This document shows, piece after piece, positions 3,689 to 28,742 of a stretch of 64,000 nt of DNA (the stretch's first letter is position 1; every line of letters begins with the position of its first letter). The stretch is from a virus: the IMG/VR virus record IMGVR_UViG_3300020377_000001, positions 1 to 64,000 of that record, one strand, 5' to 3'. Made by a program: the position numbers and the translations under genes. The notes beneath the pieces were generated by a model. The model was not told the DNA's origin and ran no database searches. It worked only from the letters and a program-made list of their open reading frames with translations.

Positions 3689-4176
3689 GCCTTAATCCTG
3701 CCGATCTGCCTTCGTCCATACTCTGCTATAAGAAGAGCGTCCGCAATCCCGTCATGGGGCTTTCTCGCCCTCTCAGACTTGCGTAGGTCTGTCTTCGGAA
3801 ACAGCCTCTTTGCTGCAAGTATGTTCCTGTCCTTGCCGTCGCCAGGAACACCAGAAAGCATTTTAGATGTCCACGTCCTCGGGGATACCACGTTTAATGA
3901 AATTTCACACGACGTTATAACTCCGAGCCATATGCCGTATCCATACCCAGTCTTAAAAGTAGAGCTCACGCCCTGACCAGGTCTTGCACTCTGAGACTCT
4001 ATGAATACCCACTTTGCGTCACCCCTAGAAAGGATCTTCTTCATCTCCGCAATGTCGTAATCTCTTTTGGACTTGCCCACGGCGATTGTGGGCGTAGTGA
4101 TTGCGAAAGACACGTTGCCGTCCAGGTCCATGCATGCGACGCCTCCAGACAGGCCTGGGTCAATGCCTATTATCAA
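3685..4176 (-). CDS. ruvC: RuvC-like Holliday junction resolvase
   Basis: MIIGIDPG, VFIE, F-x-x-G-x-x-YG and DGIADALLIA motifs. Confidence 0.9.
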   Translation of the reverse strand: MIIGIDPGLSGGVACMDLDGNVSFAITTPTIAVGKSKRDYDIAEMKKILSRGDAKWVFIESQSARPGQGVSSTFKTGYGYGIWLGVITSCEISLNVVSPRTWTSKMLSGVPGDGKDRNILAAKRLFPKTDLRKSERARKPHDGIADALLIAEYGRRQIGRIKA

Positions 4177-5038: not shown

Positions 5039-5042
5039 GCAT
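4173..5042 (-). CDS. C5 cytosine DNA methyltransferase, alpha chain
   Basis: Motif I LFAGAGG, IV GFPCQ, VI ENS, VIII HRRNR, X IGNGQVP; GGAGC RBS before ATG 5042 (the longer ORF call starting at 5447 overlaps SSB). Confidence 0.9.
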   Translation of the reverse strand: MRELALFAGAGGGILGGRMLGWRTRCAVEIDPFCRSVLLKRQRDGHLERFPIWDDIRTFDGRPWSDSIDIVTGGFPCQGISTAGSRKGLADSRSALWFEMLRVAGEARPKFVFAENSPNLRANGLGTVVEGLNSLGYDVRWCVLGAWHLGAPHRRNRLWILASDPNGIPIRHNEQWDTPKDGAAICNKRQNEFEQHGCEGPLAGPFGDSNRSRQSIDPRHAEVAGVSSMGVAPSRGQHSWWSIKPVLGRVAHGLANRVDRLKSIGNGQVPIVAAAAFKILSDEFTGAES

Positions 5043-5049
5043 TATGCTC

Positions 5050-5520
5050 CTAGAAAGGTATTGGGTCCTGTCCAGAGCCCCCACCTTGGTTGCCGCCCCA
5101 GTTGCCGCCCTGGTTTCCGCCCTGGTTTCCGCCCTGGTTTCCGCCCCAGTTGCTGCCCTGATTATTAGACTGTCCCCAGGAGCCCTGACCCTGAGATCCG
5201 CTAGAAGGCGACCCCTGCGAATCTTCGTCTCGACGTTTCTGTATAATCTTGAACATTTTACCGTCAAGCTGGGCGAATTTCTTTGTTTCTCCATCCTTTG
5301 TCCAAGACTTCTGGTACTCCTCTCCAGACGTTGTGACGATATCCCCCTTGGCGCAATACTGATGCACGAAGCTTGCGGTCTGTCCGTAAAGGCTAACCTT
5401 GTTCCAACTTGTCTCTTTCTGCCCTTTCCAAGTTCGGTCCGTTGCAATGCTCACGTTTACTATTGTCTCGGTTACCCGATCAACATTGCCAACTCTGCCT
5501 GTGATCGTAAATGTCTTCAT
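5050..5520 (-). CDS. ssb: Single-stranded DNA-binding protein
   Basis: OB-fold start ITGRVG, SIAT, G/N/Q-rich linker, DPIPF tip. Confidence 0.92.
   Translation of the reverse strand: MKTFTITGRVGNVDRVTETIVNVSIATDRTWKGQKETSWNKVSLYGQTASFVHQYCAKGDIVTTSGEEYQKSWTKDGETKKFAQLDGKMFKIIQKRRDEDSQGSPSSGSQGQGSWGQSNNQGSNWGGNQGGNQGGNQGGNWGGNQGGGSGQDPIPF
5105..5140. repeat. 3 x 12-bp tandem repeat encoding GGNQ linker of SSB
   Basis: CCGCCCTGGTTT x3 with degenerate flanking copies. Confidence 0.9.
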
Positions 5521-13526: not shown

Positions 13527-13708
13527 AGATAATGTTGGAGATTCATAGCGATATGGTTGACTGGATTGACAACCAGATCTTGGAGAAGGGTCTAGACGAA
13601 GATTGTGCTGATCGTAAAGCTCCCTACCTGAGGGGTCAAATCATTGAGTCTTTGATCGTCTCCGCTCGTGAAAGCTCCAGGAAGGATTTTCGAGGGTCAC
13701 GTAATTAG
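13523..13708 (+). CDS. Small hypothetical, ribbon-helix-helix-like
   Basis: 61 aa, ATGA-coupled to MazG. Confidence 0.45.
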   Translation: MKIMLEIHSDMVDWIDNQILEKGLDEDCADRKAPYLRGQIIESLIVSARESSRKDFRGSRN

Positions 13709-14272
13709 GTCCATAAGGTTTGACTCAGAGGCCGCAACCCAATACGCCTTATCAACCGATCCGATTGGCTGAAAGCTTCTAGAGCAGAACGACCCTAGTC
13801 GCGTGCCCGTCATCCTGCACGACGATTCGGACCACACGATAATCATGGATCCAACCACGTTTCCACCCACAGGCTTGCCTGTCGATGGGTTCAGAAAACC
13901 TACCCTGCCCTTCATGAACCACAATTCTGACGCCTTCCCAACCACGTATTTGTGAAACCATTTCACGTCTACCGTTGACGGCATGAGGGCCACAACCTCT
14001 TTCACCTCACCATCCCTCGCGGCATGCCAAGCCCTCGACATGAATTCTGCGCTTTTACTGTAAGGCGGGTTGATAAAAACGCGGTCTCCAAGCGAGGACC
14101 AGCTGTTGGCAAGCGCATTTGACTTATAGGTAAAGAAGCGAGCACAGAGTGCGTTTTTGGGATTGGCGCATGCATCGCCCGTAAATCTAAAACGACTGTT
14201 GAGACGCGCAAACAGCTCTGGAGGGGTTCTCCAATCGTCTTTCGAGTCCTCTCTGTGCTTCCTGTGGCTCAT
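13697..14272 (-). CDS. Phage (lambda-type) Dam N6-adenine methyltransferase
   Basis: DDWRTPPELF, DACA, VFINPPYS, GRVGF. Confidence 0.88.
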   Translation of the reverse strand: MSHRKHREDSKDDWRTPPELFARLNSRFRFTGDACANPKNALCARFFTYKSNALANSWSSLGDRVFINPPYSKSAEFMSRAWHAARDGEVKEVVALMPSTVDVKWFHKYVVGKASELWFMKGRVGFLNPSTGKPVGGNVVGSMIIVWSESSCRMTGTRLGSFCSRSFQPIGSVDKAYWVAASESNLMDLIT

Positions 14273-14583
14273 TGCGATATCACTGAGGGGTTATCCCTAG
14301 CATGTCTTAGCAAAGCGTCGTACAGACCCCCGTTCACGCCCCCCTGGATAGATCTGGTGAGGTGAACCCCGTTGGAGTCCGACTGAACATGCAATACTGA
14401 TGAGTCGCTCAACATAAAGACATGTGAGCACGGTATGCTCCTGTCTTCAACCTTGGATAGGAAAAACCTAACTCGACCTAGGATTTCATCGCGCATGTCA
14501 TCTGTTGCATGCATCTGAACCTTAAACCAAAACCGCTGTACCAGACGAAGAAAGTCGCTAATTATGTGTATAAAGACCCTCAT
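14269..14583 (-). CDS. Hypothetical protein
   Basis: ATGA-coupled on both sides. Confidence 0.55.
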   Translation of the reverse strand: MRVFIHIISDFLRLVQRFWFKVQMHATDDMRDEILGRVRFFLSKVEDRSIPCSHVFMLSDSSVLHVQSDSNGVHLTRSIQGGVNGGLYDALLRHARDNPSVISQ

Positions 14584-15296
14584 ACTAGTCCCTCCTGCAA
14601 TATCAGGCTTACCTTATCCTTGGCCTCGAGAACCTTGAGCCCCCCAGCGTAAATCTTGTGAATAGACATTTTCACAAAAGGCTTTCCTGCACGATTGACG
14701 TATCCCTTTTGGTTAACCTTATCACAGATCTTTTGGTACGACACCCCAGCGTCCCTCAGGCGCATAACCATCTTGAGAACCTTTGCTTCCTCTCGGTGGA
14801 CGTGCAGATTTCCATCCTCGTCAGCAAACATTCCCCAAGGGACCGTGCCGGCCCTCTTTCCGTTTCTTCGAAGCTGACGTAGCGCCGCTCGAGTTCTCAT
14901 TTTCGTTTTAGCGAGCTCAAACTCCGCGAAGGAATCCATGATTCGTCTCATGAGGACTGCGTTTGGATCGTCACTATGGTCGAGTCCATCTGCCGACATA
15001 ATCACTGCGCCGCGCTCCTTAACCAAGGTCTCAGCGGCAATGGCCTGAGAAACACCACGCGCAAGACGGTCACGCTTTGAGATGATGAGAATATCTCCCT
15101 CCCCTAGGTCATATATCGCATCCATCAGCACTTCGCGCTCATGAAGTGCAGCAGCGCCAGAGACACCCTTTTCAACATGAATTGCCTCTACAGAAAGACC
15201 CTTACGCTCGGCCATACCCCTGCACTCAAAGATCTGTGCATCTGGGCTAAGGTGTTGCTCATCGGTCGATACTCGTACGTAAATTACTGCACCCAT
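14580..15296 (-). CDS. Serine recombinase (resolvase/invertase family)
   Basis: YVRVSTDEQ catalytic Ser, GVSG, RDRLAR, FAEFE, PWG and short C-terminal DNA-binding domain. Confidence 0.92.
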   Translation of the reverse strand: MGAVIYVRVSTDEQHLSPDAQIFECRGMAERKGLSVEAIHVEKGVSGAAALHEREVLMDAIYDLGEGDILIISKRDRLARGVSQAIAAETLVKERGAVIMSADGLDHSDDPNAVLMRRIMDSFAEFELAKTKMRTRAALRQLRRNGKRAGTVPWGMFADEDGNLHVHREEAKVLKMVMRLRDAGVSYQKICDKVNQKGYVNRAGKPFVKMSIHKIYAGGLKVLEAKDKVSLILQEGLV

Positions 15297-15297
15297 A

Positions 15298-15477
15298 CTA
15301 CACGTCCTTTCGATCTGAAGAGTTTATAAACTGCATCGCAAGAAAGCGGATTACCTGAGACCTAGACATCCTAACGCCAATCTTGGACTCCGCCAGTATG
15401 GTGGACTGCTCTAGAAGAGACCGTATCTCTAGGTTTGGATCGTGAATTGAAAAGTTGGGTGATGATTTGTTAGACAT
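15298..15477 (-). CDS. Small RHH-like regulator upstream of recombinase
   Basis: AAGGAG RBS; MSRSQVIR helix pattern. Confidence 0.5.
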   Translation of the reverse strand: MSNKSSPNFSIHDPNLEIRSLLEQSTILAESKIGVRMSRSQVIRFLAMQFINSSDRKDV

Positions 15478-15505
15478 TTTCTGCTCCTTCTCTGTTGGTA
15501 AGACC

Positions 15506-15534
15506 AATCTACTGGAGCAAATAACTCAAGTCAA
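15506..15534 (-). promoter_or_regulatory. sigma70-like promoter for regulator-recombinase-Dam unit
   Basis: TTGACT-17-TAGATT on minus strand. Confidence 0.6.
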
Positions 15535-15553
15535 CACTATTTCTAGATATAAT

Positions 15554-16285
15554 CTATATAGATCCTGTGTAGGTGTAGATGTCGCCCGACTTTGTGATTA
15601 CGTCGAATCTTATTAGTTGATTGATTACGCTTCTGGATATTCGTCCATGTTTCGGTGTGAAGCACCCCGCCGGCGCAATCTTTGACAGGTCGTCAACTGT
15701 GAATGTGTCTCCGCTAGAATAGTGGAGCTCAATTTCATTGATGAGCTTCCTTGCCTCGAGTGTTGGGTTTCGGTCGTAGTTGAATACGCTCATGCTTGGT
15801 CCTTTCGGGTCGTATGTTGTACAGGATTCACATCCTGTGTATTTTTTGCTTCTTACGTTTTCGCATCGAGAAAAGCACCATCTGCAAACCTTATATCCAC
15901 CCTTCACTCTGGGTGATTCAGGTCCAACTCTATTGAATTCTGATCCACAGCACTTGCACTTGAACCAAATATCGTAAGTCACCTCAACATGATCTGCAAA
16001 CAGAAAGTCTGGTCGAATACGCGCCATTTCAGATCTTACGACTGACTCAACAGACCTCCAGATTGCACAAAGCTTCTGGTCGGTTTTGTCGAGATAGTGT
16101 CCGTGACTATCCGCAAGAGCAATGTTTATTAAAGTGGGCCAGTGCTTTTCATCAACGATTTCTCGAATCATGTCCAGAACCCGCTCTTGGACTTTCCTCT
16201 TGGTTCCGAGGTTGCAGCTTGCATAAAGGTTTTTGGATCGTTGCGATGTTTGATTCTGCCTTTTCTGGTGCCTACTGAACCCCAT
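15554..16285 (-). CDS. Cys-rich hypothetical protein
   Basis: Several CxxC pairs and a winged-helix-like C-terminus. Confidence 0.55.
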   Translation of the reverse strand: MGFSRHQKRQNQTSQRSKNLYASCNLGTKRKVQERVLDMIREIVDEKHWPTLINIALADSHGHYLDKTDQKLCAIWRSVESVVRSEMARIRPDFLFADHVEVTYDIWFKCKCCGSEFNRVGPESPRVKGGYKVCRWCFSRCENVRSKKYTGCESCTTYDPKGPSMSVFNYDRNPTLEARKLINEIELHYSSGDTFTVDDLSKIAPAGCFTPKHGRISRSVINQLIRFDVITKSGDIYTYTGSI

Positions 16286-17061
16286 TAGGCCGCACCAAGA
16301 TTGATGCTGTCTATTTCACCGTCGTCATCTAGATGGGCCATCTCAATAAGACCAATGTCTGTTTGCGTAATGCTCAGGAGTTTTGGCACTCTAGAGGGTG
16401 AACTATACGGAACCCCTAGCCTGTTCCAGATTTTTTCAAAATATGGGATTGCTGGGTTTATTTTGTACAAACCTGAGGTAAATGGTTCGAGCTCGTTCAG
16501 GTCGAAAGATACAGTGGTTCTTACATGCATAGAGTCGTCGCGAAAAACAAATAGCGGTGACAACCCCTTATTCAGAAGCTTCTTGGCCTTAATGATGTCA
16601 ACAAGGTCAATTCTCTTGATGTCTTCAGAGACAATGGAAAGCATCGCTTCAGCCAAAGAGCACATGGAGTTTGAGTTTTGAAGATACATCCAGTCTTGGC
16701 TCACAGGATCTCTCCACGTAAGAGATTTAAGCTGACCCCCCTCCTGATGGTGGCCCTTAATCACATCGCGTATAACGTCAGACCTAACCATGTCCAGGCA
16801 CGTAGTTTGATCGAGTTCCAAGTATCTCAGCTTCTCAAGTCGAATCTTGGCTAACGTAATCAAGTCAAGGTTTGCCTGAGGGTGCAACGGTCCAGATGGG
16901 GACTCTGTCGGGGTATGGATCAGCCCTCGATCATTTAGTCTGCGTAAAAACGATACCTCGCAATTCATGCGCTCTACGATTTCACTTTCCGTTATCGTCT
17001 TTTCCATCGGCTCTTCTGCTCTTGGGAACACCCGGGGCCCCCGTGTTTGCTTTGGTTTCAT
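16285..17061 (-). CDS. Hypothetical protein, possible MerR-like N-terminus
   Basis: GAAAGGACC RBS; LRRLNDRGLIHTP pattern. Confidence 0.55.
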   Translation of the reverse strand: MKPKQTRGPRVFPRAEEPMEKTITESEIVERMNCEVSFLRRLNDRGLIHTPTESPSGPLHPQANLDLITLAKIRLEKLRYLELDQTTCLDMVRSDVIRDVIKGHHQEGGQLKSLTWRDPVSQDWMYLQNSNSMCSLAEAMLSIVSEDIKRIDLVDIIKAKKLLNKGLSPLFVFRDDSMHVRTTVSFDLNELEPFTSGLYKINPAIPYFEKIWNRLGVPYSSPSRVPKLLSITQTDIGLIEMAHLDDDGEIDSINLGAA

Positions 17062-17165
17062 AATGGTCCTTTCTGTAACTTATTGGCAAACCCATGGGTC
17101 CGTATGGTGTTCCAGGCTTTGCCCTCATCTTTTTAAGTAGTTTACCTGTTTCATGAGTGGCCAAA

Positions 17166-17774
17166 CTACCTTCTCCTTAGTTGCTCTCTTAGTGAAAATT
17201 CACAGTTCAGTGCGTCAGTGACATGAATTCGATCACCATCATAGCCGCGCTCAACGTTTAGGTAAACATGGGCTTTCTTTGGGAGGGATATATTTCCGCT
17301 TATAAACTCCAAACCCTTTTGTGTTAGGCGCCACAAGCCGCTTGTAAGTTGTTCTTCCACAGAGTCCTCAATCGACTGCTCAATGAGCCCCCAGTACTTT
17401 GCTCGAGTGTAATGCCTCGAAGTCCTAAACTCCCTAGGTGCAGACTTGGATACACTTACCCACTTTGCCTCGACCAATATTGGTGTCTTCCCTGACCAAT
17501 CGATGACGCAGAAATTTTCTGCCATCCAGATTAACGGTTCGACGACGGTTCTTGTTAATGACTCGCTTCGCATCTTAACATGTTGTCCACAGCAGGGGCA
17601 GTACGACCCCTCTAAGAGGAAGGCACTTAGTCTTCTTTGGACATGCTCAATCGTTAACTGTTTTTCGGTGGGATCTAGCGTAGGTAAGTACCCAACCATC
17701 CTGTCAATTTCTGATCGTGGGTCAATCTCTAAATTTGTTGTCTCTGTATCAACAAATAATTCATACTGCTTCAT
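17166..17774 (-). CDS. Zn-ribbon/winged-helix hypothetical protein
   Basis: CPCCGQ, WGLIE, GLWRLTQKGLEF. Confidence 0.6.
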   Translation of the reverse strand: MKQYELFVDTETTNLEIDPRSEIDRMVGYLPTLDPTEKQLTIEHVQRRLSAFLLEGSYCPCCGQHVKMRSESLTRTVVEPLIWMAENFCVIDWSGKTPILVEAKWVSVSKSAPREFRTSRHYTRAKYWGLIEQSIEDSVEEQLTSGLWRLTQKGLEFISGNISLPKKAHVYLNVERGYDGDRIHVTDALNCEFSLREQLRRR

Positions 17775-17802
17775 TTACTGCTCCTTTGTGACGTTGGTCA
17801 GA

Positions 17803-18093
17803 TCACTTGATTTTGAAGTTTTTACAAAATTCCATACCCTTCTCGGTGAGCTCACAGTCAATAACATGCACAGTGGACCTCGTGCCAGACATCGAAACCT
17901 TTTTGTGCTCAAGTACCTTAACGAGACCCATGCGTTGCAGTCTCATCACGGCCCTAATTCTTGACGCCCCCCTTCTTTTCTTGGATGTCGGCTCAACCCG
18001 TACACTTTGTTGAATCCGAAATATAGGAAAGCTTTGACAGTTTGCCTGATAGATCTCGTCGAGAAGACCTCTAGCGTAGAGTCCTAGTCTCAT
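17803..18093 (-). CDS. Winged-helix-like hypothetical protein
   Basis: RAVMRLQRMGLV...ELTEKG; start moved to ATG 18093 to avoid long overlap. Confidence 0.5.
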   Translation of the reverse strand: MRLGLYARGLLDEIYQANCQSFPIFRIQQSVRVEPTSKKRRGASRIRAVMRLQRMGLVKVLEHKKVSMSGTRSTVHVIDCELTEKGMEFCKNFKIK

Positions 18094-18352
18094 TGACGAA
18101 CCTCCCTTCCATAATCTTCCTAAGCTCGTATTCAGCATACTCAGCAAGGATGTCCCAAACCTCATCCCAACCACTACCTCTTTCGGACCAGTAACGTGCG
18201 GCCCCTTCGCTATCTGCCCCGAGAGACTCCTGAATACACGCAATCGCGTTGAACATTGCCGATTTCGCGATTTCGTTTGAACGGGACTGAATTTCGTCAT
18301 TCATGTAATCGTTCACATAGACAACGGGCAAGTTTATGGTTTCTTTATGCAT
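18071..18352 (-). CDS. Acidic hypothetical protein
   Basis: GAGGTG RBS, 93 aa. Confidence 0.55.
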   Translation of the reverse strand: MHKETINLPVVYVNDYMNDEIQSRSNEIAKSAMFNAIACIQESLGADSEGAARYWSERGSGWDEVWDILAEYAEYELRKIMEGRFVNETRTLR

Positions 18353-18372
18353 ATCACACCTCGATTTAGACT

Positions 18373-18597
18373 CTAATTATAGATAAAAGCCACGAGCATG
18401 TCTTGAATGTCTTTCATACAAGCCTTACTCATGTCTTCGCTCACGCTTTGACCGTCATCTCTGTGGACTGAAATGATTCTGATGGTGTCCTTTTTTCTGG
18501 CGCCTCGAACTAGGTCACACTCATACTTTACGGTCAACGGGCACCCATAATCCTCTGACCAAAACCTAAAAAACTTAACTACTCCTACATTCTCCAT
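18373..18597 (-). CDS. Hypothetical protein
   Basis: 74-aa ORF in tightly packed array. Confidence 0.5.
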   Translation of the reverse strand: MENVGVVKFFRFWSEDYGCPLTVKYECDLVRGARKKDTIRIISVHRDDGQSVSEDMSKACMKDIQDMLVAFIYN

Positions 18598-18932
18598 CCC
18601 AAGATCCCTCGCTTGACCTCTCGGATCAGGCTTATAATCTCTATCTTCTCAATGTGACTGTCATATGCGGTGTGTGTAATATGAACGTCGGCACCATCAA
18701 CAAGCCTGCTGTAAAGCTTGATGGTTGCCCAGGGAAACATACGAGACAGCACGGTGCCAAAATTATCGAGATATTGCTCGAACTGTTCAGTAGACATTTT
18801 CAACTGAAGCAGCGTGTGCTCATCTGGACTACCGACAGACACCCGGATTTCAGGCTCATCCCCAACGGGTTCTGCTCTTTCTGGAAAGCTAAGAAGGTTT
18901 GCCATGCCCAAATCCTTTTTCATCTCTTCCAA
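18585..18932 (-). CDS. Hypothetical protein
   Basis: ORF downstream of leader motif copy at 18962. Confidence 0.5.
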   Translation of the reverse strand: MEEMKKDLGMANLLSFPERAEPVGDEPEIRVSVGSPDEHTLLQLKMSTEQFEQYLDNFGTVLSRMFPWATIKLYSRLVDGADVHITHTAYDSHIEKIEIISLIREVKRGILGWRM

Positions 18933-19045
18933 TTTTCCTGAAAAGCTCCCGAAAGTTCATGAAAGGTTTTCTGTGTTGGCCGTAATTCTGTGCAAACCAA
19001 CCGCAAAAGTTGAAGTGATCGCGAATAACAAAGATCGGTGGGCGC

Positions 19046-19381
19046 CTAGCTTGGGGCCGGAAGGCTCAGTGTAACGCGACCACGCTGCATCCCAAATATG
19101 GACAGTCCACCCTTTGTTGTAAAGCATTCGTCTAACACAAACATCGACTGGTCTATGATGGTCTGTACACGCCTGGACTCACGACCGAGCGTTCTGCTGC
19201 CAGGTGTCAATTCGCTATGGGCCAGCCTTAAGGTCTGGCGCTCAACAAGCATGAGCTTATCCCAGACGTAGCAAATCGACTTTTGCCTATCTTGCTCTGT
19301 CTTGTATCCATGAACCACCAGCTCAAAAAGTAGTCCCTTCACGTCCAAAGTCGCAATGTATATCGGATTGTCGAAGATCAT
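19046..19381 (-). CDS. Hypothetical protein
   Basis: ORF downstream of leader motif copy at 19401. Confidence 0.5.
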   Translation of the reverse strand: MIFDNPIYIATLDVKGLLFELVVHGYKTEQDRQKSICYVWDKLMLVERQTLRLAHSELTPGSRTLGRESRRVQTIIDQSMFVLDECFTTKGGLSIFGMQRGRVTLSLPAPS

Positions 19382-19695
19382 GTGACAGGCCGTCCATGCT
19401 CTATAAAGGTTTTTTGATCTTGACGTAATTTGCGCTGTTTCTCGGTAGTTTCTTCGAGTAGCTCAGACCACTTTTCTCTCGTGTCTAGGTGATCTGAGGC
19501 CGCACGGAAGTCATCAAGAAACTCCATCAACTGGTGGTCCTTGATTGACTCGGCGATTTGATAGATTTTCTCGCAGGTCTGCTCTGTCCAGATCATGCAT
19601 GGATCGCACCCGCCATCTGCCTGAGTATAGACGTACCCACACTCGGTGCAGGTGATGTCATCACCCTCTGTGATCCAGTTGTCGTAAGATTTCAT
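19378..19695 (-). CDS. Zn-finger hypothetical protein
   Basis: AGGAG RBS; CTEC..CDPC. Confidence 0.55.
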   Translation of the reverse strand: MKSYDNWITEGDDITCTECGYVYTQADGGCDPCMIWTEQTCEKIYQIAESIKDHQLMEFLDDFRAASDHLDTREKWSELLEETTEKQRKLRQDQKTFIEHGRPVT

Positions 19696-19898
19696 GTTGT
19701 CGCTCCTGGCCTGCCAAAGTACCCTTGGCAGCCTGTACACCTGAGAGCTGACCACCCACCAAAGGACACCTTGTGGACCTCCTTACAATGCGGGCATACG
19801 ACTATACACATGTACATGGTTCTGTCGGCATGATTGTTATACACCAGCCACTTTTGAAGCATGACTGATTGTTCAGGTTTTGATTGTTGGATATTCAT
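19692..19898 (-). CDS. Zn-ribbon hypothetical protein
   Basis: GGAGG RBS; CPHC..CTGC. Confidence 0.55.
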   Translation of the reverse strand: MNIQQSKPEQSVMLQKWLVYNNHADRTMYMCIVVCPHCKEVHKVSFGGWSALRCTGCQGYFGRPGATT

Positions 19899-20191
19899 CT
19901 GATCCTCCGAATGTGAATCGAGGAGACGCCACAGCCTGGCAGGATGCCGCTGTGCTTCCCGTTGCCTGTGCCAAAGCGATTGACATGGACAGCGAAGTTC
20001 TCTGTAAGTTGGTCTGCTAGGTCCTCGCGTTGCCGGTGGCCAAGCCATTTCATGTCGGCATGAGTAACGAGCTTTGAGCCCTTGATGAGACGGTTTAGTG
20101 TTGCGACGAAGTCGTCAACCGTGTTGAGGAAAGTATAGTCGAATTTATTAGTCTGAGTATCTTCATATGCATCGATAAAATCTTTGAACAT
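19895..20191 (-). CDS. Hypothetical protein
   Basis: GAAAGGACC RBS directly after leader motif. Confidence 0.55.
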   Translation of the reverse strand: MFKDFIDAYEDTQTNKFDYTFLNTVDDFVATLNRLIKGSKLVTHADMKWLGHRQREDLADQLTENFAVHVNRFGTGNGKHSGILPGCGVSSIHIRRIR

Positions 20192-20260
20192 CGTTGGTCC
20201 TTTCAAAGGTCTATAAAGGTTTTTCTATTGTTCCGTAATTAAAGGGTTATGTCAAAAGTG

Positions 20261-20827
20261 TCATGCGTTATATAAGCCTTGCTCGTCTATAGGAATTTTA
20301 CTCACCGAGTCAATAAACTCTTCAAATTGAAGCCTGACCTCCTTAAGGGTTTCAGCATCGTGAACCTGGCACAGGTAAACGCAATCACCATATTTGTACT
20401 CAAGGTCGCCTTCAAAGTATCCATGAGAATCCCCAGACACATGTCCTGCAAGGATGCCATCGCAAAAGACCAGAAAACGGCGTGGTTCAAGCGCAGGTAA
20501 GGGATTCGATTGGACCTCGATCTGGATCTTGATCTTGTTTTTATCCCAGTCAAAGGTAGGTAGTGCAATGTTGACAAATGCATCAGAGTCAAAGACGATC
20601 ATATCAAAGCCATTCTTGTGTGCGTATGAGAGCACCTTCGTTATCCATTCTGGCTCGCTTGAGTAGTCTTCGTATGGATCGAAGGATACGTACATGAAGT
20701 AGCCGTATAGAAACTTATACGCTGAGTGTGTGCCAAAGCTTGGCTCAGACGAAGGCATGTGTGCGGTGCTGATATGTAGTGTTCTAAATTCTGTTCGACA
20801 GGCGTTCTTAGGTCTTTGGTTATTCAT
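20261..20827 (-). CDS. DUF5983-like protein with C-terminal extension
   Basis: ISTAHM...YGY...IVFDSDA...LPTFDW pattern. Confidence 0.6.
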   Translation of the reverse strand: MNNQRPKNACRTEFRTLHISTAHMPSSEPSFGTHSAYKFLYGYFMYVSFDPYEDYSSEPEWITKVLSYAHKNGFDMIVFDSDAFVNIALPTFDWDKNKIKIQIEVQSNPLPALEPRRFLVFCDGILAGHVSGDSHGYFEGDLEYKYGDCVYLCQVHDAETLKEVRLQFEEFIDSVSKIPIDEQGLYNA

Positions 20828-20878
20828 GATGATAATGCTCCGTTGATTTCTATAAAGGTTTTCTGAGAGTGACGTAAT

Positions 20879-21067
20879 TTAGTCTTCCACATCCTCGGCA
20901 TCGCAATCGCAGTATGAGCATGTAAAACACGCTGCATCTACGAAGTGCCTGTCAACCGACTCGACAAGCCTGCGACGGTCATCTAAAGACACGGTTATAT
21001 GAAAGTATGCCTCTGTCTTTGGGCATGTTCTGCTTTCGCATTCTGGGTTACTACATCGTAACCTCAT
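20879..21067 (-). CDS. Small Cys-rich protein
   Basis: CSNPEC and CSYC; ATGA coupling. Confidence 0.5.
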   Translation of the reverse strand: MRLRCSNPECESRTCPKTEAYFHITVSLDDRRRLVESVDRHFVDAACFTCSYCDCDAEDVED

Positions 21068-21291
21068 TGGTCTACCCTGCTTTCAATCTCGTGAACAACC
21101 TCACCAGAATCATGTGACCATGCCACCACGCGCAGTGCGCCATCCGCGTAATAGACACCGAACCGCTCAACGCCGTCGTCGTCCATGATCACCAGGGCGC
21201 CACCCTGCATCTCAATGGAGATGTCTGCACAGTCAACAGTGCCATCCCCGTTTGCGTCGTCACTAAGCCTTAAATCAATTCGCTGAATCAT
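21064..21291 (-). CDS. Acidic hypothetical protein
   Basis: GGGGGTG RBS; coupled. Confidence 0.5.
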   Translation of the reverse strand: MIQRIDLRLSDDANGDGTVDCADISIEMQGGALVIMDDDGVERFGVYYADGALRVVAWSHDSGEVVHEIESRVDQ

Positions 21292-21419
21292 CGCGCACCC
21301 CCAGTCATTTTTTCTAGCCATTCGTTTGCCTCAACCTTGCAGACAAAGAGTCTGATCAGCTGATCGTTCCATAACCCCAACCAGCACTGATTTATCTCTG
21401 AGTACTTAACACTAATCAT
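21288..21419 (-). CDS. 43-aa protein (not in ORF track)
   Basis: MISVKYSEINQCWLG...; ATGA overlaps at both ends. Confidence 0.5.
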   Translation of the reverse strand: MISVKYSEINQCWLGLWNDQLIRLFVCKVEANEWLEKMTGGAR

Positions 21420-21586
21420 GAGTAGTCCCTTTCAATGTAGGCCCAAACCTGGCCCATTTTGACCTCGCCGTGCTCGCAGGCAAGATCGTATGCCATCCTG
21501 TCTATCTCGTCTTTACAATCCTCTCGACTCCGAGCGACATACTCTACGGTCGAGTTTAAGTTGAAGTTAACAATCACCACTTTCAT
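21416..21586 (-). CDS. 56-aa protein (not in ORF track)
   Basis: MKVVIVNF...; GGAG RBS, start 15 nt after leader motif. Confidence 0.55.
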   Translation of the reverse strand: MKVVIVNFNLNSTVEYVARSREDCKDEIDRMAYDLACEHGEVKMGQVWAYIERDYS

Positions 21587-21649
21587 ATCTGCTCCAATGC
21601 TCTATAAAGGTTTTTTAATCTTGACGTAATTAAGCTAACCGCAACATAA

Positions 21650-22003
21650 CTATACACTTCTCTGAATTGACTTGATTTGGTACACCACCGTGTACTCGAA
21701 GTCACAAGACGTACAGAATAATTGAGAATAAAACAGGGTAAGGCCGGCACAGTACCGTTCACCATCTGCCTCGATATTATCGCACCCACACTTTGGGCAC
21801 GTACTTAACGCTCTATGAATAAGAGATTGCTCGTCTGTGGTCCTCTCAACCACTTTGACCACATTACGATTCTTGGATTTCAGGTGAGCGACGGTCTGAT
21901 CACGAAAGTCATCGCCCCAGACCTCATCCACAACCGTGTACCCATCGGCACCCTGGTGATAAACCGCGTAGCTTTTCTGTCTCTCTTCTATCTGATAGCT
22001 CAT
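21650..22003 (-). CDS. Zn-ribbon hypothetical protein
   Basis: CPKC..CTSC; first gene of leftward array. Confidence 0.55.
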   Translation of the reverse strand: MSYQIEERQKSYAVYHQGADGYTVVDEVWGDDFRDQTVAHLKSKNRNVVKVVERTTDEQSLIHRALSTCPKCGCDNIEADGERYCAGLTLFYSQLFCTSCDFEYTVVYQIKSIQRSV

Positions 22004-22259
22004 TCTGCCACCTTTCATTTTGCTCTCGGAAGTTCCAGAGCCGTTTTTGAGATCTGACGTAATCGCCGATCCCCAGGAAAAGTTTTTTCACTCTAGCCGC
22101 CCAAGTTCCACAAAGGTTTTTGGGATCGGCCGTAATTTCACCCCCTATACGCGGGCGGGCGCACGCCCGCATCACCCGCGTCATGAGGAAATTTTCGGCA
22201 CTGCTCAAATGTTCAGCAATGAACGGATGTTCAGCACCAACTATTTGCCCACATGAGAC

Positions 22260-24148: not shown

Positions 24149-25089
24149 AGAAGGCACCGAAGAAGGGGATCAAAATTCCGGTCATCCTCGACAAGTGGGC
24201 CACCAGTAGAGCCCGCGCAACTCAGCAGCTTGACGGAACATTCCAAGTGACGAAGATCGATCGGAAGACAAAGAAAGAGATCACGTACACGCAGAAGCCG
24301 AGCGATGCGACGATCTCAACCTGTACCGATAGCAGCGGGAACGCAAAGCTGCGAAAAACGCTTGCCATCCTTCGCGATGTTTACGGATGGATTGACCCGG
24401 TGATCGGATCGTTTGCCTTGCCCGCGTACAGTGACGGCAACGGGGGAAAGATCTGTCACGGGGCGTCAGACTGTTTGGTATACTGCTATGCGATGCAAAC
24501 TAGATACGTCATGCCCCAGGCAAGCGATCTCAGATTCCGCAACTTGATCACGCTAGAACGCGCCCAGGAACGCGGCGGAGTTGAAGCTATGACCGCCGAG
24601 CTAGTGAGAATTTTCAAGCACTGGATCAAATACAAGACGGGGCGATCGCGGAATATCGCGCTCCGCTTGCACGACTCAGGCGATTTTTTCAGTCAAGACT
24701 ATGTCGACGCCATGGCCGCAGCGGTCACCCAGGTGAGGCAATGGGCACGCGATGAAATGGGAATCACTCGGTTTGTTCCGTACGCCTACACAAAAAGCCT
24801 ACACCTCAACCTTGAGCCACTTTGGAACGCAGGCGTCCAGCTTGTCCAAAGTCACGGCGGAAAGTTTGACAAGCTGATCGACCCACGGAAACCGATTGCA
24901 CAGGTGGCAGGCAAGGGCCAGCCGATGCCGAAGGGATGGAAAAGCGGAAACAGTGACGAGCACCTAGAATGCCTAGCCATCACAGGCTACCCGCGGATCT
25001 GGTTACCGTACCACGGCAACCACTCAGAACCTAAATCCTTAACGGCTCGCCGCGTTGAATTATTCCAAATCACCGAAAGGAGCGCATAA
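24145..25089 (+). CDS. GP88-like radical-SAM-related protein
   Basis: GNAKL, CHGASDCLVYCYA, RLHDSGDF, YAYTK motifs. Confidence 0.75.
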   Translation: MKKAPKKGIKIPVILDKWATSRARATQQLDGTFQVTKIDRKTKKEITYTQKPSDATISTCTDSSGNAKLRKTLAILRDVYGWIDPVIGSFALPAYSDGNGGKICHGASDCLVYCYAMQTRYVMPQASDLRFRNLITLERAQERGGVEAMTAELVRIFKHWIKYKTGRSRNIALRLHDSGDFFSQDYVDAMAAAVTQVRQWARDEMGITRFVPYAYTKSLHLNLEPLWNAGVQLVQSHGGKFDKLIDPRKPIAQVAGKGQPMPKGWKSGNSDEHLECLAITGYPRIWLPYHGNHSEPKSLTARRVELFQITERSA

Positions 25090-25569: not shown

Positions 25570-25823
25570 ACACCACAACCAAACCACAACCGCGAATCGT
25601 TCGCGCTTATTACGTCGCACGCTATCGGCTCGCAGCCTGGATCGCCTCATGGGCTTTTGTTCAGCTTGTCACAGACTTGGCGATCGAGAAGGTGACCGAA
25701 GACCAAGACGATCGGATCGTTGAGTGTGAAGAAGCGATCGAACAATGGGATGACCGACTGACCGCAGTTGAAGAACTAGCCGAAGCAAACGATCGGACTT
25801 TGGACGAGATGGCCAACGGTTGA
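25566..25823 (+). CDS. Acidic coiled-coil hypothetical protein
   Basis: AAGGAG RBS, ATGA overlap. Confidence 0.55.
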   Translation: MNTTTKPQPRIVRAYYVARYRLAAWIASWAFVQLVTDLAIEKVTEDQDDRIVECEEAIEQWDDRLTAVEELAEANDRTLDEMANG

Positions 25824-25847
25824 CCCAGGACCACCACCAAGCAAACG

Positions 25848-25872
25848 AGCCGGCCACATGGTCGGTTTTTTT
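25848..25872 (+). terminator. Intrinsic terminator of plus-strand island
   Basis: AGCCGGCC-ACAT-GGTCGGTT hairpin followed by T run. Confidence 0.75.
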
Positions 25873-26953
25873 GTGTCTACCGTTCGACAATTCAACACGG
25901 CCTCGAGGACCGCAGACACACCAACACACCACACAGCAGACGAAGCCGAGATCGGCGATTTAAGCGACGCAAAGCAAAAGCACCACCGCAGACACGCAAA
26001 GACAGCCGAAACGGCAGCAGACGCCAAGCACGGCACACACACGGACAAACGAACCACCGACCACCGACGCAAGATCAAACGATGCACTCGGAGCGATTGA
26101 GCCCAGGACCACGATCCACGGTTCGAGCTGAGTAGGAGACCGCGCCCCGATGCACTCGGAGAAGGTGACCACGGGTTACCATCGACCGGCGAAGACCACC
26201 ACTACCGATCGCGATTGCTCGCCACTGGTACACATTGCCACGTCTATCGATTGATCCAAACTTGATCCCTTTGCAAGGTGAACACGTACCGAGAACAAGG
26301 CCCACAGATACCCAGTAGAGCCCGAAAACGACCGTATAAGCGATTGAATACCACTAAAGGCTAGCCCAGGACCTAAAGAGACCACAGCGGAGCATAGGCG
26401 CCCAATGTGCAAACCTTCGCGGGATATGCTGGCGGACTGGTTGAGGTTTGGCGGATGTGTCGGGTTTGGTTTGGGGTTATTGTGGGTTTGATGGATGGCA
26501 GCGGAAGGCCGATCGAGGCTGCCGAGGTAACCGCCCTTTAGTGGGTCACCGCCTCGGAGAGTATCGGCACAGCCTCGGAGATTGTCGGAGACTGTGAACG
26601 GATGCCCAGTTTATCGGGTTGGATGGTGCTTTGTTTCGCATATCGTAAACAACCGACCGATCGGTTACTGGTGAAGCCTACCCTATACGCACACAATCAG
26701 GCACCCCGTGGGGACTGGAAAGGGGTTTTAACATAGCGGACAACCCCCATGACAGCGAGATCTGAAAATTGGATTCCAATGCACTGTTATGAACCAAATG
26801 CCAGCCTTCTGAGCGACGTTATGACCCAAACATGAGCCGATGTATAGGTTCACCTATCTAAATTGAATACAGAGGAGTTCTCAGCCTTCTAAGGTGATTT
26901 GTGTCACCTAGTTTTGGCTACCTTCTTTGTCGAGCTCTAAATATATCTTGATT

Positions 26954-27028
26954 GGAAAGTAGGGAGTCCCCATGAAAGGACCAACAAACCTGAGGACTCC
27001 CAATGTCACAACGGAGCAGTTGATGACT
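26954..27028 (-). ncRNA. Candidate two-hairpin sRNA with anti-SD loops
   Basis: Hairpins 27005-27027 (loop UGCUCC) and 26962-27001 (loop GGUUUGUUGGUCCUUUCA); upstream TTGAAA-16-TACAAC at 27035-27062. Confidence 0.5.
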
Positions 27029-27099
27029 CACTCAGTTGTACCAGCAAATCAGATTCTTTCAACCAATCAATTCTGAGCCCCATCTCGATTGAGCACTGA

Positions 27100-27240
27100 A
27101 GGGGGGTTTGGGGGGTAGTAATGTTTAGTAGTTTTTTAAGTAATAGATTTAGAGAGTATACACCTAATTGGTTTACTTAGTTATAAACAACTAAGTTAGT
27201 TATATATATATATATATATTATTATACTAATTAGTTAGGG
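27100..27240. other. AT-rich origin-like tract with (TA)9 and inverted repeat
   Basis: G runs then ~80% AT; ACTTAGTT/AACTAAGT at 27175-27196; TA x9 at 27201-27218. Confidence 0.5.
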
Positions 27241-27351
27241 GCGCTAAGTGTCTGAAAGCAAAGGGGAATACGCTCAGTATCTATTAAATGGATACAGGAT
27301 GCAAAAGGATTGAATACAGGATCAATTCTTTCCTCAAGTGATTACAGGTGC

Positions 27352-27858
27352 TTACGCTATCTGGATGCCGATTTGTAGCCATTGATTACAATCGGGGTTT
27401 TTGGGCATAAATTTAGGATCAAGTCGCCGCTTTTCGGACTCTGTTATGAGTCGGAGGTTTTTGCGTTCGAGAGCATACTCGAGCTCATCGACAGACTTGG
27501 CTCCGATGCCCGGTTTCTCGAGCAACTCACGTCTTGTAAATTGAACGACGTCTCGGACCTTGCCTGCCTGTATGCACGTCGCAATTCGGTTTGCGGTCTT
27601 GGTGCTGATTTCGAGTCGATGGATTCCGCTTTCAAGGATTGAGTCTTTGTCAATTCCTCGAACATTCGCTTCAAAGGTTCTGCCGTTGGGCGACATTCCT
27701 GTAATCTTCGATTTGGCTGCGTGATAGTTCAACTTCAAAACTTCAGATCCGTCCTCAGAGTAGAAAATGAGCCCCTCACCAGTTTGCTGCCCATAGCAAA
27801 CGAGCTCTTCACTCGTTAAGGGATCAAAGACAGTAATTGTCTGTGTCGGCCTCGTCAT
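27352..27858 (-). CDS. Protein with RNA polymerase alpha-CTD domain
   Basis: IHRLEISTKTAN...VRDVVQFTRRELLEKPGIGAKSVDELEYAL matches alpha-CTD pattern. Confidence 0.75.
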   Translation of the reverse strand: MTRPTQTITVFDPLTSEELVCYGQQTGEGLIFYSEDGSEVLKLNYHAAKSKITGMSPNGRTFEANVRGIDKDSILESGIHRLEISTKTANRIATCIQAGKVRDVVQFTRRELLEKPGIGAKSVDELEYALERKNLRLITESEKRRLDPKFMPKNPDCNQWLQIGIQIA

Positions 27859-28024: not shown

Positions 28025-28669
28025 GTGTCTTTTGAAATTAGATCGATAACCAGAACCGAGGCTTTGCCGTTATTTCAAAGGTATCACGGGTATAAGTCAA
28101 TGGGGGGCGTCTGTACATATCTATTCGGAGTATTAGAGCGCGGTTCTGTTGTCGCTGCGTTCGCCTGGCAGCCTCCAGCGGCAGGTTGTGCCAGATCTGT
28201 GCTTCCTGATGCCAGTTACGGTGTTTTATGCTTATCTAGAATGGTGGCTGTCCCAAAGGAAGAGCGTAATCTACGACACCTGTCAAAGCCTCTGCGATTT
28301 CAAGTGCGAAATTTAATAGATAGGGGGCGATGGCCTGCTTTGGTCACATTCTCAGATGAAGGCTTGGGGCACACAGGGCACGTATACAAGTGCTCTGGAT
28401 GGAAAAAAACCTCTCGAAAGAAGCGCTCACAGTTCATGGACAAAGAAGGCAGAAGGACTGCACCGTATAGTGACGGAAAAAAGGTAGAAGGGCTGATTAA
28501 GGTAGGGGCAGCCTATATTCAGCGGTGGGAGAAGCATGCTGTTCCACCTGAAGAGGCTGCAGGCTGGATTGAGGCAAACGGTTGGCGGCGTGAAGCGATC
28601 CCAGGAAAGTTCTGGTCATCAGGCAACCAGGCTTATCGGATGTCAAAACAGCAATCCATGCCATTTTAG
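28025..28669 (+). CDS. Mom-like (GNAT fold) DNA modification protein
   Basis: LSRMV, VTFSDEGLGHTGHVYKCSGW motif; AAAGGAG RBS. Confidence 0.7.
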   Translation: MSFEIRSITRTEALPLFQRYHGYKSMGGVCTYLFGVLERGSVVAAFAWQPPAAGCARSVLPDASYGVLCLSRMVAVPKEERNLRHLSKPLRFQVRNLIDRGRWPALVTFSDEGLGHTGHVYKCSGWKKTSRKKRSQFMDKEGRRTAPYSDGKKVEGLIKVGAAYIQRWEKHAVPPEEAAGWIEANGWRREAIPGKFWSSGNQAYRMSKQQSMPF

Positions 28670-28742
28670 CCTCTTGGAATCATTAGGAAAATCCGATCGA
28701 GTGTGGCATACAGATTCTTGTGCCGCTACAGAAAGGACCGAC

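Follow-up and report, generated by a model that had tools for sequence, protein, structure and literature searches.

A conserved two-hairpin element in a marine siphophage genome as a candidate regulatory RNA complementary to phage ribosome-binding sites

Does a marine siphophage encode a small RNA that is directed at its own ribosome-binding sites (RBSs)? This question is raised by positions 26954-27062 of the DNA analyzed here, which comprises the first 64,000 nucleotides (nt) of virus record IMGVR_UViG_3300020377_000001 in IMG/VR (hereafter the window; bases 1-64000 of a contig of 75,141 base pairs (bp)). An earlier note on this DNA proposed that the element specifies a trans-acting RNA that shuts off translation of two classes of RBS. 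The minus strand of the element folds into two hairpins whose stems and loops are identical in a related contig, and the loops are complementary to two RBS variants that are over-represented in this phage. The reading that we prefer is that the element gives rise to a terminated, leader-type minus-strand RNA of ~74 nt that would act in trans, much as c4 RNA does, on GAAAGGACC sites and perhaps on GGAGCA sites. We assign this reading a probability of about 0.38. The narrower proposition, that a short leader-type RNA is made from the minus strand and ends at hairpin 2, seems slightly more probable than its contrary.

Hairpins 1 and 2 are joined by the linker AUU (Table 1). The loop of hairpin 1, UGCUCC, is complementary to GGAGCA-type RBSs, and the 18-nt loop of hairpin 2, GGUUUGUUGGUCCUUUCA, includes the seed GUUGGUCCUUUCA (26985-26973), which is complementary to RBSs of the GAAAGGACC type. 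An 85-nt fold of the minus strand (-28.3 kcal/mol, z-score -2.0) consists of these two hairpins, and the corresponding plus-strand fold (-24.6 kcal/mol, z-score -1.8) has a mismatch in hairpin 2. Both hairpins that the earlier note drew on the minus strand between 27027 and 26962, with loops of UGCUCC and 18 nt, are therefore borne out by the sequence and by the folding of both strands. Folds of 216 nt of either strand, with z-scores of about 0, give no hint of a larger structured RNA. The seed in loop 2 is predicted to be 77% unpaired wherever the RNA begins. UGCUCC is fully unpaired if the 5' end lies at or after 27034. A 5' end further upstream permits an alternative hairpin 1' (-9.4 kcal/mol, versus -6.3 kcal/mol for hairpin 1) that buries UGCUCC, leaving it 8-37% unpaired.

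The minus strand is favored as the functional strand. Hairpin 2 alone is more stable on the minus strand (-18.8 kcal/mol) than on the plus strand (-14.7 kcal/mol), because a U-G pair of the minus strand becomes a C-A mismatch on the plus strand; the strand preference that the earlier note drew from this pair holds. The tail that follows hairpin 2 is UACUUUCC in the window (4 U in 8), and it is richer in U in relatives: UAUUUUCU in the contig L002 (6 in 8), and AGUUUUUUCC, with a run of six U directly after the 3' arm of hairpin 2, in a much diverged contig from run X11. The orientation of both neighboring genes also points to the minus strand. On the plus strand, no T-tract follows the element, and no promoter or terminator flanks it there.

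A promoter-like sequence precedes the hairpins on the minus strand, as the earlier note stated. Its -35 hexamer, TTGAAA, matches the consensus at 5/6 positions and is followed by a 16-nt spacer and the -10 hexamer TACAAC, which matches at 4/6 positions. An extended -10 TGn is correctly placed, and it is conserved in all three variants (the window, L002, and the diverged X11 contig). No RNA data set was listed as covering the element, and the only metatranscriptome contig match to the window, at 24241-24398, lies off the element and is uninformative on its expression.

Table 1. Features of the two-hairpin element, the adjoining gene remnant and candidate target sites (window coordinates)
Feature	Coordinates	Strand	Details
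Promoter-like element	27035..27062	-	-35 TTGAAA 27062-27057; 16-nt spacer; extended -10 TGG-TACAAC 27043-27035; read from sequence
Hairpin 1	27005..27027	-	GUCA-U-CAAC / loop UGCUCC 27018-27013 / GUUG-UGAC; -6.3 kcal/mol; in minimum-energy fold
Alternative hairpin 1'	27008..27039	-	12 bp; loop CAUCA; -9.4 kcal/mol; forms in 216-nt and 123-nt folds
Hairpin 2	26962..27001	-	11-bp GC-rich stem with one U-G pair; 18-nt loop 26990-26973; -18.8 kcal/mol
U-rich tail after hairpin 2	26954..26961	-	UACUUUCC
Remnant of deleted minus-strand gene	26908..26942	-	last ~12 codons and stop codon still in window
Best loop 2 candidate target: leader UGAAAGGACCAAC of gene 20191	20193..20205	-	match TGAAAGGACCAAC, sole 13-nt match in 75-kb genome; -23.4 kcal/mol
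Loop 2 candidate target: RBS GAAAGGACCA of gene 17061	17064..17073	-	10-nt match; -22.3 kcal/mol
Loop 2 candidate target: RBS GAAAGGACC of Dam-like methyltransferase gene 28743	28731..28739	+	-22.2 kcal/mol
Loop 2 candidate target: RBS GAAAGGACCAA of gene 15793	15796..15806	-	11-nt match; -19.9 kcal/mol
Best loop 1 candidate target: leader CAACGGAGCA of gene 20827	20836..20845	-	10-nt match; -12.4 kcal/mol

Complementarity between the element and the leaders of phage genes is unusually extensive. Among the leaders of 82 gene starts from a crude caller, 10 are complementary to the minus-strand element over at least 8 nt and 4 over at least 10 nt, and only 0.07-0.1% of all 85-nt segments on either strand equal the element in this. 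These peers are mostly antisense to real RBSs or to Shine-Dalgarno-like runs within genes. The second-best segment, at 66.3 kb, was rejected, as it merely covers Shine-Dalgarno-like runs inside a coding gene. All matches listed in the earlier note exist, including those to genes 20191 (13 nt), 20827 and 17061 (10 nt each) and the site of the Dam gene 28743. In L002, the Dam RBS reads AGAAAGGACCA, and AGAAAGGACC is kept there although both flanks have diverged.

The two loops behave differently against controls in which their sequences were shuffled with the anti-Shine-Dalgarno core kept (UCCUUU for loop 2). The best duplex of loop 2 has an energy of -23.4 kcal/mol, versus a shuffle mean of -18.1 kcal/mol, and 2% of the shuffles reach it; none of the core-preserving shuffles reaches the mean of its five best duplexes. 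Loop 1 is no better than shuffled CUCC loops, 42-52% of which do as well. The matches claimed earlier thus exceed such controls for loop 2 and fail to do so for loop 1, and only loop 2 offers an accessible seed with leader complementarity beyond chance.

The RBS variants to which the loops correspond are themselves over-represented. GGAGCA is found 9-14 nt before the starts at 4176, 5520, 15477, 20827, 21586, 23337, 44431, 51083 and 68492. It also occurs at 5050 and 17784, where it fits the starts at 5042 and 17774 of the earlier note, which the gene caller did not call. GGAGCA accounts for 9/36 GGAG sites in gene leaders, versus 9% genome-wide (p=0.004). The marine Roseobacter phage CRP-901, which has annotated starts, served as a control: GGAGCA has a share of 0/42 there (p=0.0005), and AGGAC accounts for 1/43 sites there versus 12/53 here (p=0.005), a comparison that is weakened in that CRP-901 and the window phage may use hosts with different ribosomes. 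GAAAGGAC occurs nine times in the genome, six times at RBSs. The canonical 16S tail (...CCUCCUUUCU) would pair neither with the CA that follows GGAG nor with the CC that follows AAGGA, so something else may select these flanks. The loops of the element fit this role, and a protein would fit it too.

The two best targets lie directly behind copies of a dispersed leader motif, as the earlier note reported. This motif, AATTACG-N10-AAAACCTTTATAGA, is present in nine copies, all on the minus strand of the early region (13667-22142), and most copies end 5-25 nt before an RBS. No copy of the AATTACG...TATAGA motif is found near the element. The motif resembles a promoter, but TATAGA as a -10 hexamer would place the start site atop the Shine-Dalgarno sequence. 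Were it a promoter, the mRNA could begin within the 13-nt target and so lack a part of it; polycistronic read-through transcripts would still include the target.

Conservation was assessed mainly with L002, a JGI metagenome contig of 4872 bp that encodes an 82%-identical copy of the 168-amino-acid (aa) protein encoded next to the element. It is the sole usable relative DNA that was found. No similar DNA or proteins were detected in a phage collection (blastn and tblastn), IMG/VR (protein and pattern scans) or a prokaryote genome collection, and the nearest match of the large terminase is only 46% identical. Three other candidate relatives, L001, L003 and L004, were rejected as chance matches. 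The genes that flank the element are 74-90% identical to L002 at the DNA level, and positions 26800-27280 are 92-100% identical. Both hairpins, stems and loops together (63 nt), are 100% identical. The five substitutions within 27062-26954, at 27044 (in the promoter spacer), 27030, 27003 (in the linker), 26959 and 26954, are all confined to the 46 nt that do not belong to the hairpins (p=0.012 for this to occur by chance), and two further differences are located just past this span, at 26952 and 26951. Apart from the change at 27044, the promoter-like element is identical. This distribution supports fine-scale constraint on the element. A flanking inverted repeat, TTGATTGG / CCAATCAA, was dropped from consideration and is not kept in L002.

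The much diverged X11 contig aligns with the window only over 26974-27024, where its minus-strand flanks read ...CGTGGTACAACTGGGGTGGCT upstream and UGUGGGGCUCCCAGUUUUUUCC downstream. The 11-mer TGGTACAACTG, which contains the extended -10, is kept despite its altered surroundings. One arm of each hairpin is readable in this contig: the 5' arm of hairpin 1 changes from GUCA to GCUA, and the 3' arm of hairpin 2 from UGGGGACUCCC to GUGGGGCUCCC.

In relatives, the element stands directly before a gene that the window phage has largely lost. L002 carries 208 extra nt exactly at 26942/26946 (compared with L002:2408-2618), and these complete a minus-strand open reading frame (ORF) of 78 aa (L002:2417-2653) that matches phrog_8676 (E=2e-23). 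An X11 contig that is 97% identical over 26946-27575 has ~214 extra nt at the same place and appears to carry the phrog_8676 gene as well. Because the last 12 codons of this gene are left over in the window, it is the window phage that bears a deletion. The RBS of the phrog_8676 gene in L002 begins ~20 nt after hairpin 2 on the same strand. Since this leaves no room for a promoter between them, the minus strand has to be transcribed across the element in L002, where hairpin 2 is thus not a complete stop.

In the reading that we prefer, the extended -10 promoter at 27062-27035 on the minus strand would start an RNA near 27028, and this RNA would fold into hairpin 1, with its loop UGCUCC, and hairpin 2. 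Hairpin 2 and the U-rich tail would act as an intrinsic terminator that yields an RNA of ~74 nt. In relatives, the element would be the leader of the small phrog_8676 gene, which would be expressed by read-through of the terminator; the window phage has lost the gene and would have kept the leader intact. The released leader RNA might act in trans, like c4 of phage P1 and the CI RNA of phage P4: the loop of hairpin 2, and possibly loop 1, would pair with extended Shine-Dalgarno sequences of phage genes and hinder binding of the 30S subunit. The main candidate targets would be the GAAAGGACC sites of genes 20191, 17061 and 15793 and of the Dam gene 28743. From the earlier proposal there survive a noncoding, constrained minus-strand element with a terminator-like end and its complementarity to two over-represented RBS variants; the idea of two regulated RBS classes is weakened by the generic nature of loop 1 and by the mixture of early and late genes that carry GGAGCA.

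A more specific version of this reading is that the element is an anti-Shine-Dalgarno mimic. Its loops would copy two registers of the 16S 3' tail (CUCC and UCCUUUC) with phage-specific flanks, and the phage RBSs (GGAGCA and GAAAGGACC) would have coevolved so that their pairing with the RNA surpasses that with the ribosome. We regard this version as improbable. If it were true, one small RNA could retune the translation of about twenty phage genes during infection.

Several points weigh against a trans-acting RNA. The minus-strand RNA is a prediction from sequence. Sigma-70 promoters have hexamers 16-18 nt apart and a -10 hexamer with A in second and T in sixth place; TACAAC is without this most conserved final T, and a sigma-70 scan did not call TTGAAA-16-TACAAC for that reason. 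Hairpin 2 was not called by a terminator scan for loops of 3-8 nt; its 18-nt loop is atypical of an intrinsic terminator, and the tail in the window has only 4 U in 8. Hairpin 1', being more stable than hairpin 1, would hide loop 1 in transcripts that start upstream, and the U-to-C substitution at 27030 in L002 turns a U-G pair of hairpin 1' into C-G (-11.4 kcal/mol), a small point in favor of longer transcripts. The gene starts (n=82) on which the leader comparisons are based came from a crude gene caller. The genes with GGAGCA have both early and late functions (SSB, a resolvase, early genes and a tail fiber), so they form no clean temporal class for a switch to act on. Because the stems are identical in L002, the single relative compared, they carry no information on covariation, and no stem covariation was seen; the conservation claimed for the element thus extends to identity of both hairpins and not to compensatory change. 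The local near-identity could also reflect recent recombination or a role at the DNA level, and only ~80 nt separate the element from the stretch of the genome that is richest in AT, palindromic and best conserved. Finally, the position of the element directly upstream of a gene in relatives suits a cis-acting leader or terminator equally well.

Such a purely cis-acting leader, attenuator or terminator is the alternative that deserves most attention, and we judge it somewhat unlikely. RNA polymerase that started at the extended -10 promoter, or that came from the 168-aa gene upstream, would meet hairpin 2, which would set the level of read-through into the small gene in relatives; in the window phage, the element would be an orphan left by the recent 208-bp deletion, and its complementarity to RBSs would have no function. 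The location immediately before a real RBS in L002 and, by inference, in the 97%-identical X11 contig fits this explanation, as do the six-U tail of the diverged variant, the preference for hairpin 1' in longer transcripts together with the L002 substitution that strengthens it, and the generic complementarity of loop 1. However, a plain terminator needs no given loop sequence, and the 18-nt loop is fully conserved; loop 2 also surpasses core-preserving shuffles and matches an RBS variant that is itself over-represented and conserved. The element has, moreover, stayed intact after loss of the downstream gene, although the deletion may be recent. Less likely still, but also a serious rival, is the explanation that the hairpins work at the DNA level in a replication origin or regulatory region, where they would bind a protein or form single-strand structures near the AT-rich palindrome, and that no functional RNA exists. 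The palindrome at 27111-27250, with its (TA)9 run, ACTAA/TTAGT units and near-perfect identity in L002, speaks for this, and so does the surrounding 1.4 kb (25875-27350), which has repeats and indels of 25 and 16 nt and is without a conserved ORF. Yet the G-U asymmetry and the U-tract are features of RNA, in relatives an entire gene separates the hairpins from the left-hand repeats, and DNA binding does not explain why the loops mirror RBSs. It is quite improbable that the sequence is functionless, having been recently exchanged or drifting slowly, with hairpins and complementarity that arose by chance and were chosen post hoc. Near-identity blocks are common in mosaic phage genomes, only one relative is at hand, the z-score of the fold is only about -2, and that of larger folds is near 0. 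Against chance stand the avoidance of the hairpins by substitutions at a scale of 10-20 nt (p=0.012), the status of the element as a genome-wide outlier in leader complementarity, and the persistence of TGGTACAACTG and of a stem with a U-tract in a much more diverged variant.

The remaining explanations concern the plus strand or a protein product. A plus-strand RNA would display GGAGCA and AAGGACC in its loops and could, as a decoy, capture CsrA/RsmA or else a translational repressor that reads the RBS variants; both plus-strand loops do contain GGA, and over-represented RBS variants would suit a protein that reads them. This idea, which the earlier note had offered as an alternative, is disfavored by the weaker fold, the C-A mismatch and the want of a T-tract, and a sponge of the CsrB/RsmZ type would be expected to have many GGA-loop hairpins, of which there are only two here. 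A terminator-like hairpin at 26892-26917 lies just upstream on that strand, there is no adjacent conserved promoter, and the adjacent upstream plus-strand sequence in relatives is the antisense of the inserted gene. We consider a plus-strand decoy very improbable. A small protein gene is scarcely credible, whether it be the plus-strand 34-aa ORF (26972-27076), also raised in the earlier note, or a minus-strand 25-aa ORF (27083-27006). The 34-aa ORF is intact in L002, with GGGAG 5 nt before its ATG at 26972 and GGAG 7 nt before an in-frame ATG at 27023. However, all three of its substitutions in L002 are non-synonymous (N11S, H20R and A25T), and in the diverged X11 variant the ATG at 26972 becomes CAG and that at 27023 becomes ATA, the nearest upstream ATG being out of frame. 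In the 25-aa ORF, 7/10 comparable codons are changed in the same variant. The peptide is not hydrophobic, so it is unlike a type I toxin. A coding role was rejected for both ORFs on these amino acid changes and lost starts and codons.

The element does not belong to a family that is represented in Rfam as far as the searches reached. No family scored at its gathering threshold in the 64-kb window, and a permissive search of 25800-27400 (E up to 10) returned a single match, a chance snoRNA. There is likewise no covariance-model match to the C4 family (RF01695; P1 c4 and P4 CI). The closest parallels in design are nevertheless c4 RNA of P1/P7 and CI RNA of P4, which are phage-encoded, ~75-80 nt long, derived from operon leaders, and able to pair around an RBS through short complementary sequences, as is proposed here. 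The c4 RNA blocks an RBS by means of complementary sequences that are thought to be in its loops (PMC12197685). In contrast to the element, whose candidate targets are dispersed RBSs 6-12 kb away, c4 acts on targets downstream in its own transcript, within one antirepressor operon. No GGAGCA or AAGGACC is present on the minus strand between 26950 and 25800, so far as a loop-complementary site in the same transcript is concerned, and downstream of the element in L002 the only complementary site is an 8-nt AAGGACCA within a coding region (L002:2541). In a further contrast to c4, no processing is known for the element, and nothing marks the window phage as temperate.

Other known RNAs share single aspects of the element. 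In Staphylococcus aureus, RNAIII (hairpins 7, 13 and 14) and RsaE-type small RNAs use C-rich anti-Shine-Dalgarno loops to pair with the RBSs of several mRNAs, and the terminator hairpin H14 of RNAIII is also a seed. Those RNAs are host-encoded, far larger or otherwise built, and use a UCCC motif; the element is phage-encoded and predicted to have two loops with different motifs. The 6S leader RNA of lambda PR'-tR' and the put RNA of HK022 are short promoter-proximal hairpin transcripts, and put consists of two adjacent stem-loops with a total of ~70 nt. They resemble the element in having hairpins that end at, or act on, a terminator just upstream of genes, but they act in cis on RNA polymerase, and their loops are not complementary to RBSs. 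Q-like or put-like features were not noticed in the element. The sar RNA of P22 and the OOP RNA of lambda are phage antisense RNAs of ~70-77 nt with their own promoter and intrinsic terminator. They are cis-antisense to an overlapping gene, whereas only non-conserved ORFs overlap the element.

The source phage derives from marine metagenomes that belong to several studies. Its contig has 49% GC, and an end overlap of 55 bp indicates a circular assembly. The genes are those of a tailed phage (siphophage) and include a large terminase, a tape-measure protein, a 3231-aa tail protein, a DnaB-like helicase, a RecE-like exonuclease and several methyltransferases. The element lies in ~1.4 kb (25875-27350) that hold no convincing genes. 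The left border of this stretch is an intrinsic terminator (25847-25875) that closes a plus-strand operon, and the right border is the end of the minus-strand gene for the 168-aa protein (27352-27858). The C-terminal half of this protein matches the RNA polymerase alpha subunit C-terminal domain (PF03118, E=2.6e-5), just above the Pfam cut-off. Homologues with 96%, 82% and 65% identity are found in marine metagenomes, the last of these (P0003) on a 15-kb contig.

The 75-kb genome reaches its highest AT content (up to 82%) at 27111-27250, between this gene and the element and ~80 nt upstream of the latter on the minus strand. This stretch is 98-100% identical in L002, where neighboring genes are ~85% identical. 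The AT-rich block as a whole, given as 27141-27286, is a large imperfect palindrome around the (TA)9 run with repeated ACTAA/TTAGT units, an outer inverted repeat of 25 nt, and CCCCCCAAACCCCCC on its flanks. The palindrome could be a replication origin or a cluster of operators and promoters. Just past the stop of the 168-aa gene, identity between 27291-27335 and L002:2020-2075 is only 54%, and the ATCCTGTAT-type units of the window stand there as the reverse complement GGATACAGGAT, which could represent a small inversion or a remodeled hairpin.

On the other side of the element, ~1 kb (25875-26900) is apparently noncoding, yet it is 82-100% identical to L002. Its plus strand has C/A-rich, thymine-poor tracts to ~26400 and is G/T-rich beyond. 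Direct repeats comprise two copies each of CGATGCACTCGGAG and AGCCCAGGACC and a 21-nt tandem pair at 26547-26588. Neither of the two indels relative to L002 in the gene-poor stretch (25 and 16 nt) is a multiple of three. The terminator-like plus-strand hairpin at 26892-26917, AGGTGATTTGTGTCACCT followed by AGTTTTGG, is 100% conserved in L002; it faces hairpin 2 and directly follows the stop codon that is left of the deleted gene. These two hairpins may form a convergent terminator pair.

Two further differences between the phages were observed nearby. Neither L002 nor a contig of run X13, in which 27929 is joined to 28675 via 18 other letters, has the Mom-like gene of 28025-28669 (phrog_1384), so this gene is a variable cassette beside the conserved Dam gene. 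At ~25560, L002 (3942-4147) is longer by ~206 nt in the gap that separates the 116-aa from the 85-aa ORF in the plus-strand operon, an indel of the size of a small gene.

To our knowledge, hardly any regulatory RNAs have been described from lytic and uncultured marine phages. Phage small RNAs described so far are mostly from temperate phages of enteric bacteria (PMC12197685). The two-hairpin element is a compact, testable candidate for a regulatory RNA of a marine phage. Even as a mere leader or terminator, it would still be a conserved regulatory module beside a probable origin and a phage protein that resembles the alpha subunit C-terminal domain. Should the RNA be made and pair with the unusual RBSs of this phage, it would demonstrate that a phage is able to tag some of its genes with a private Shine-Dalgarno variant and to control them through a single small RNA.

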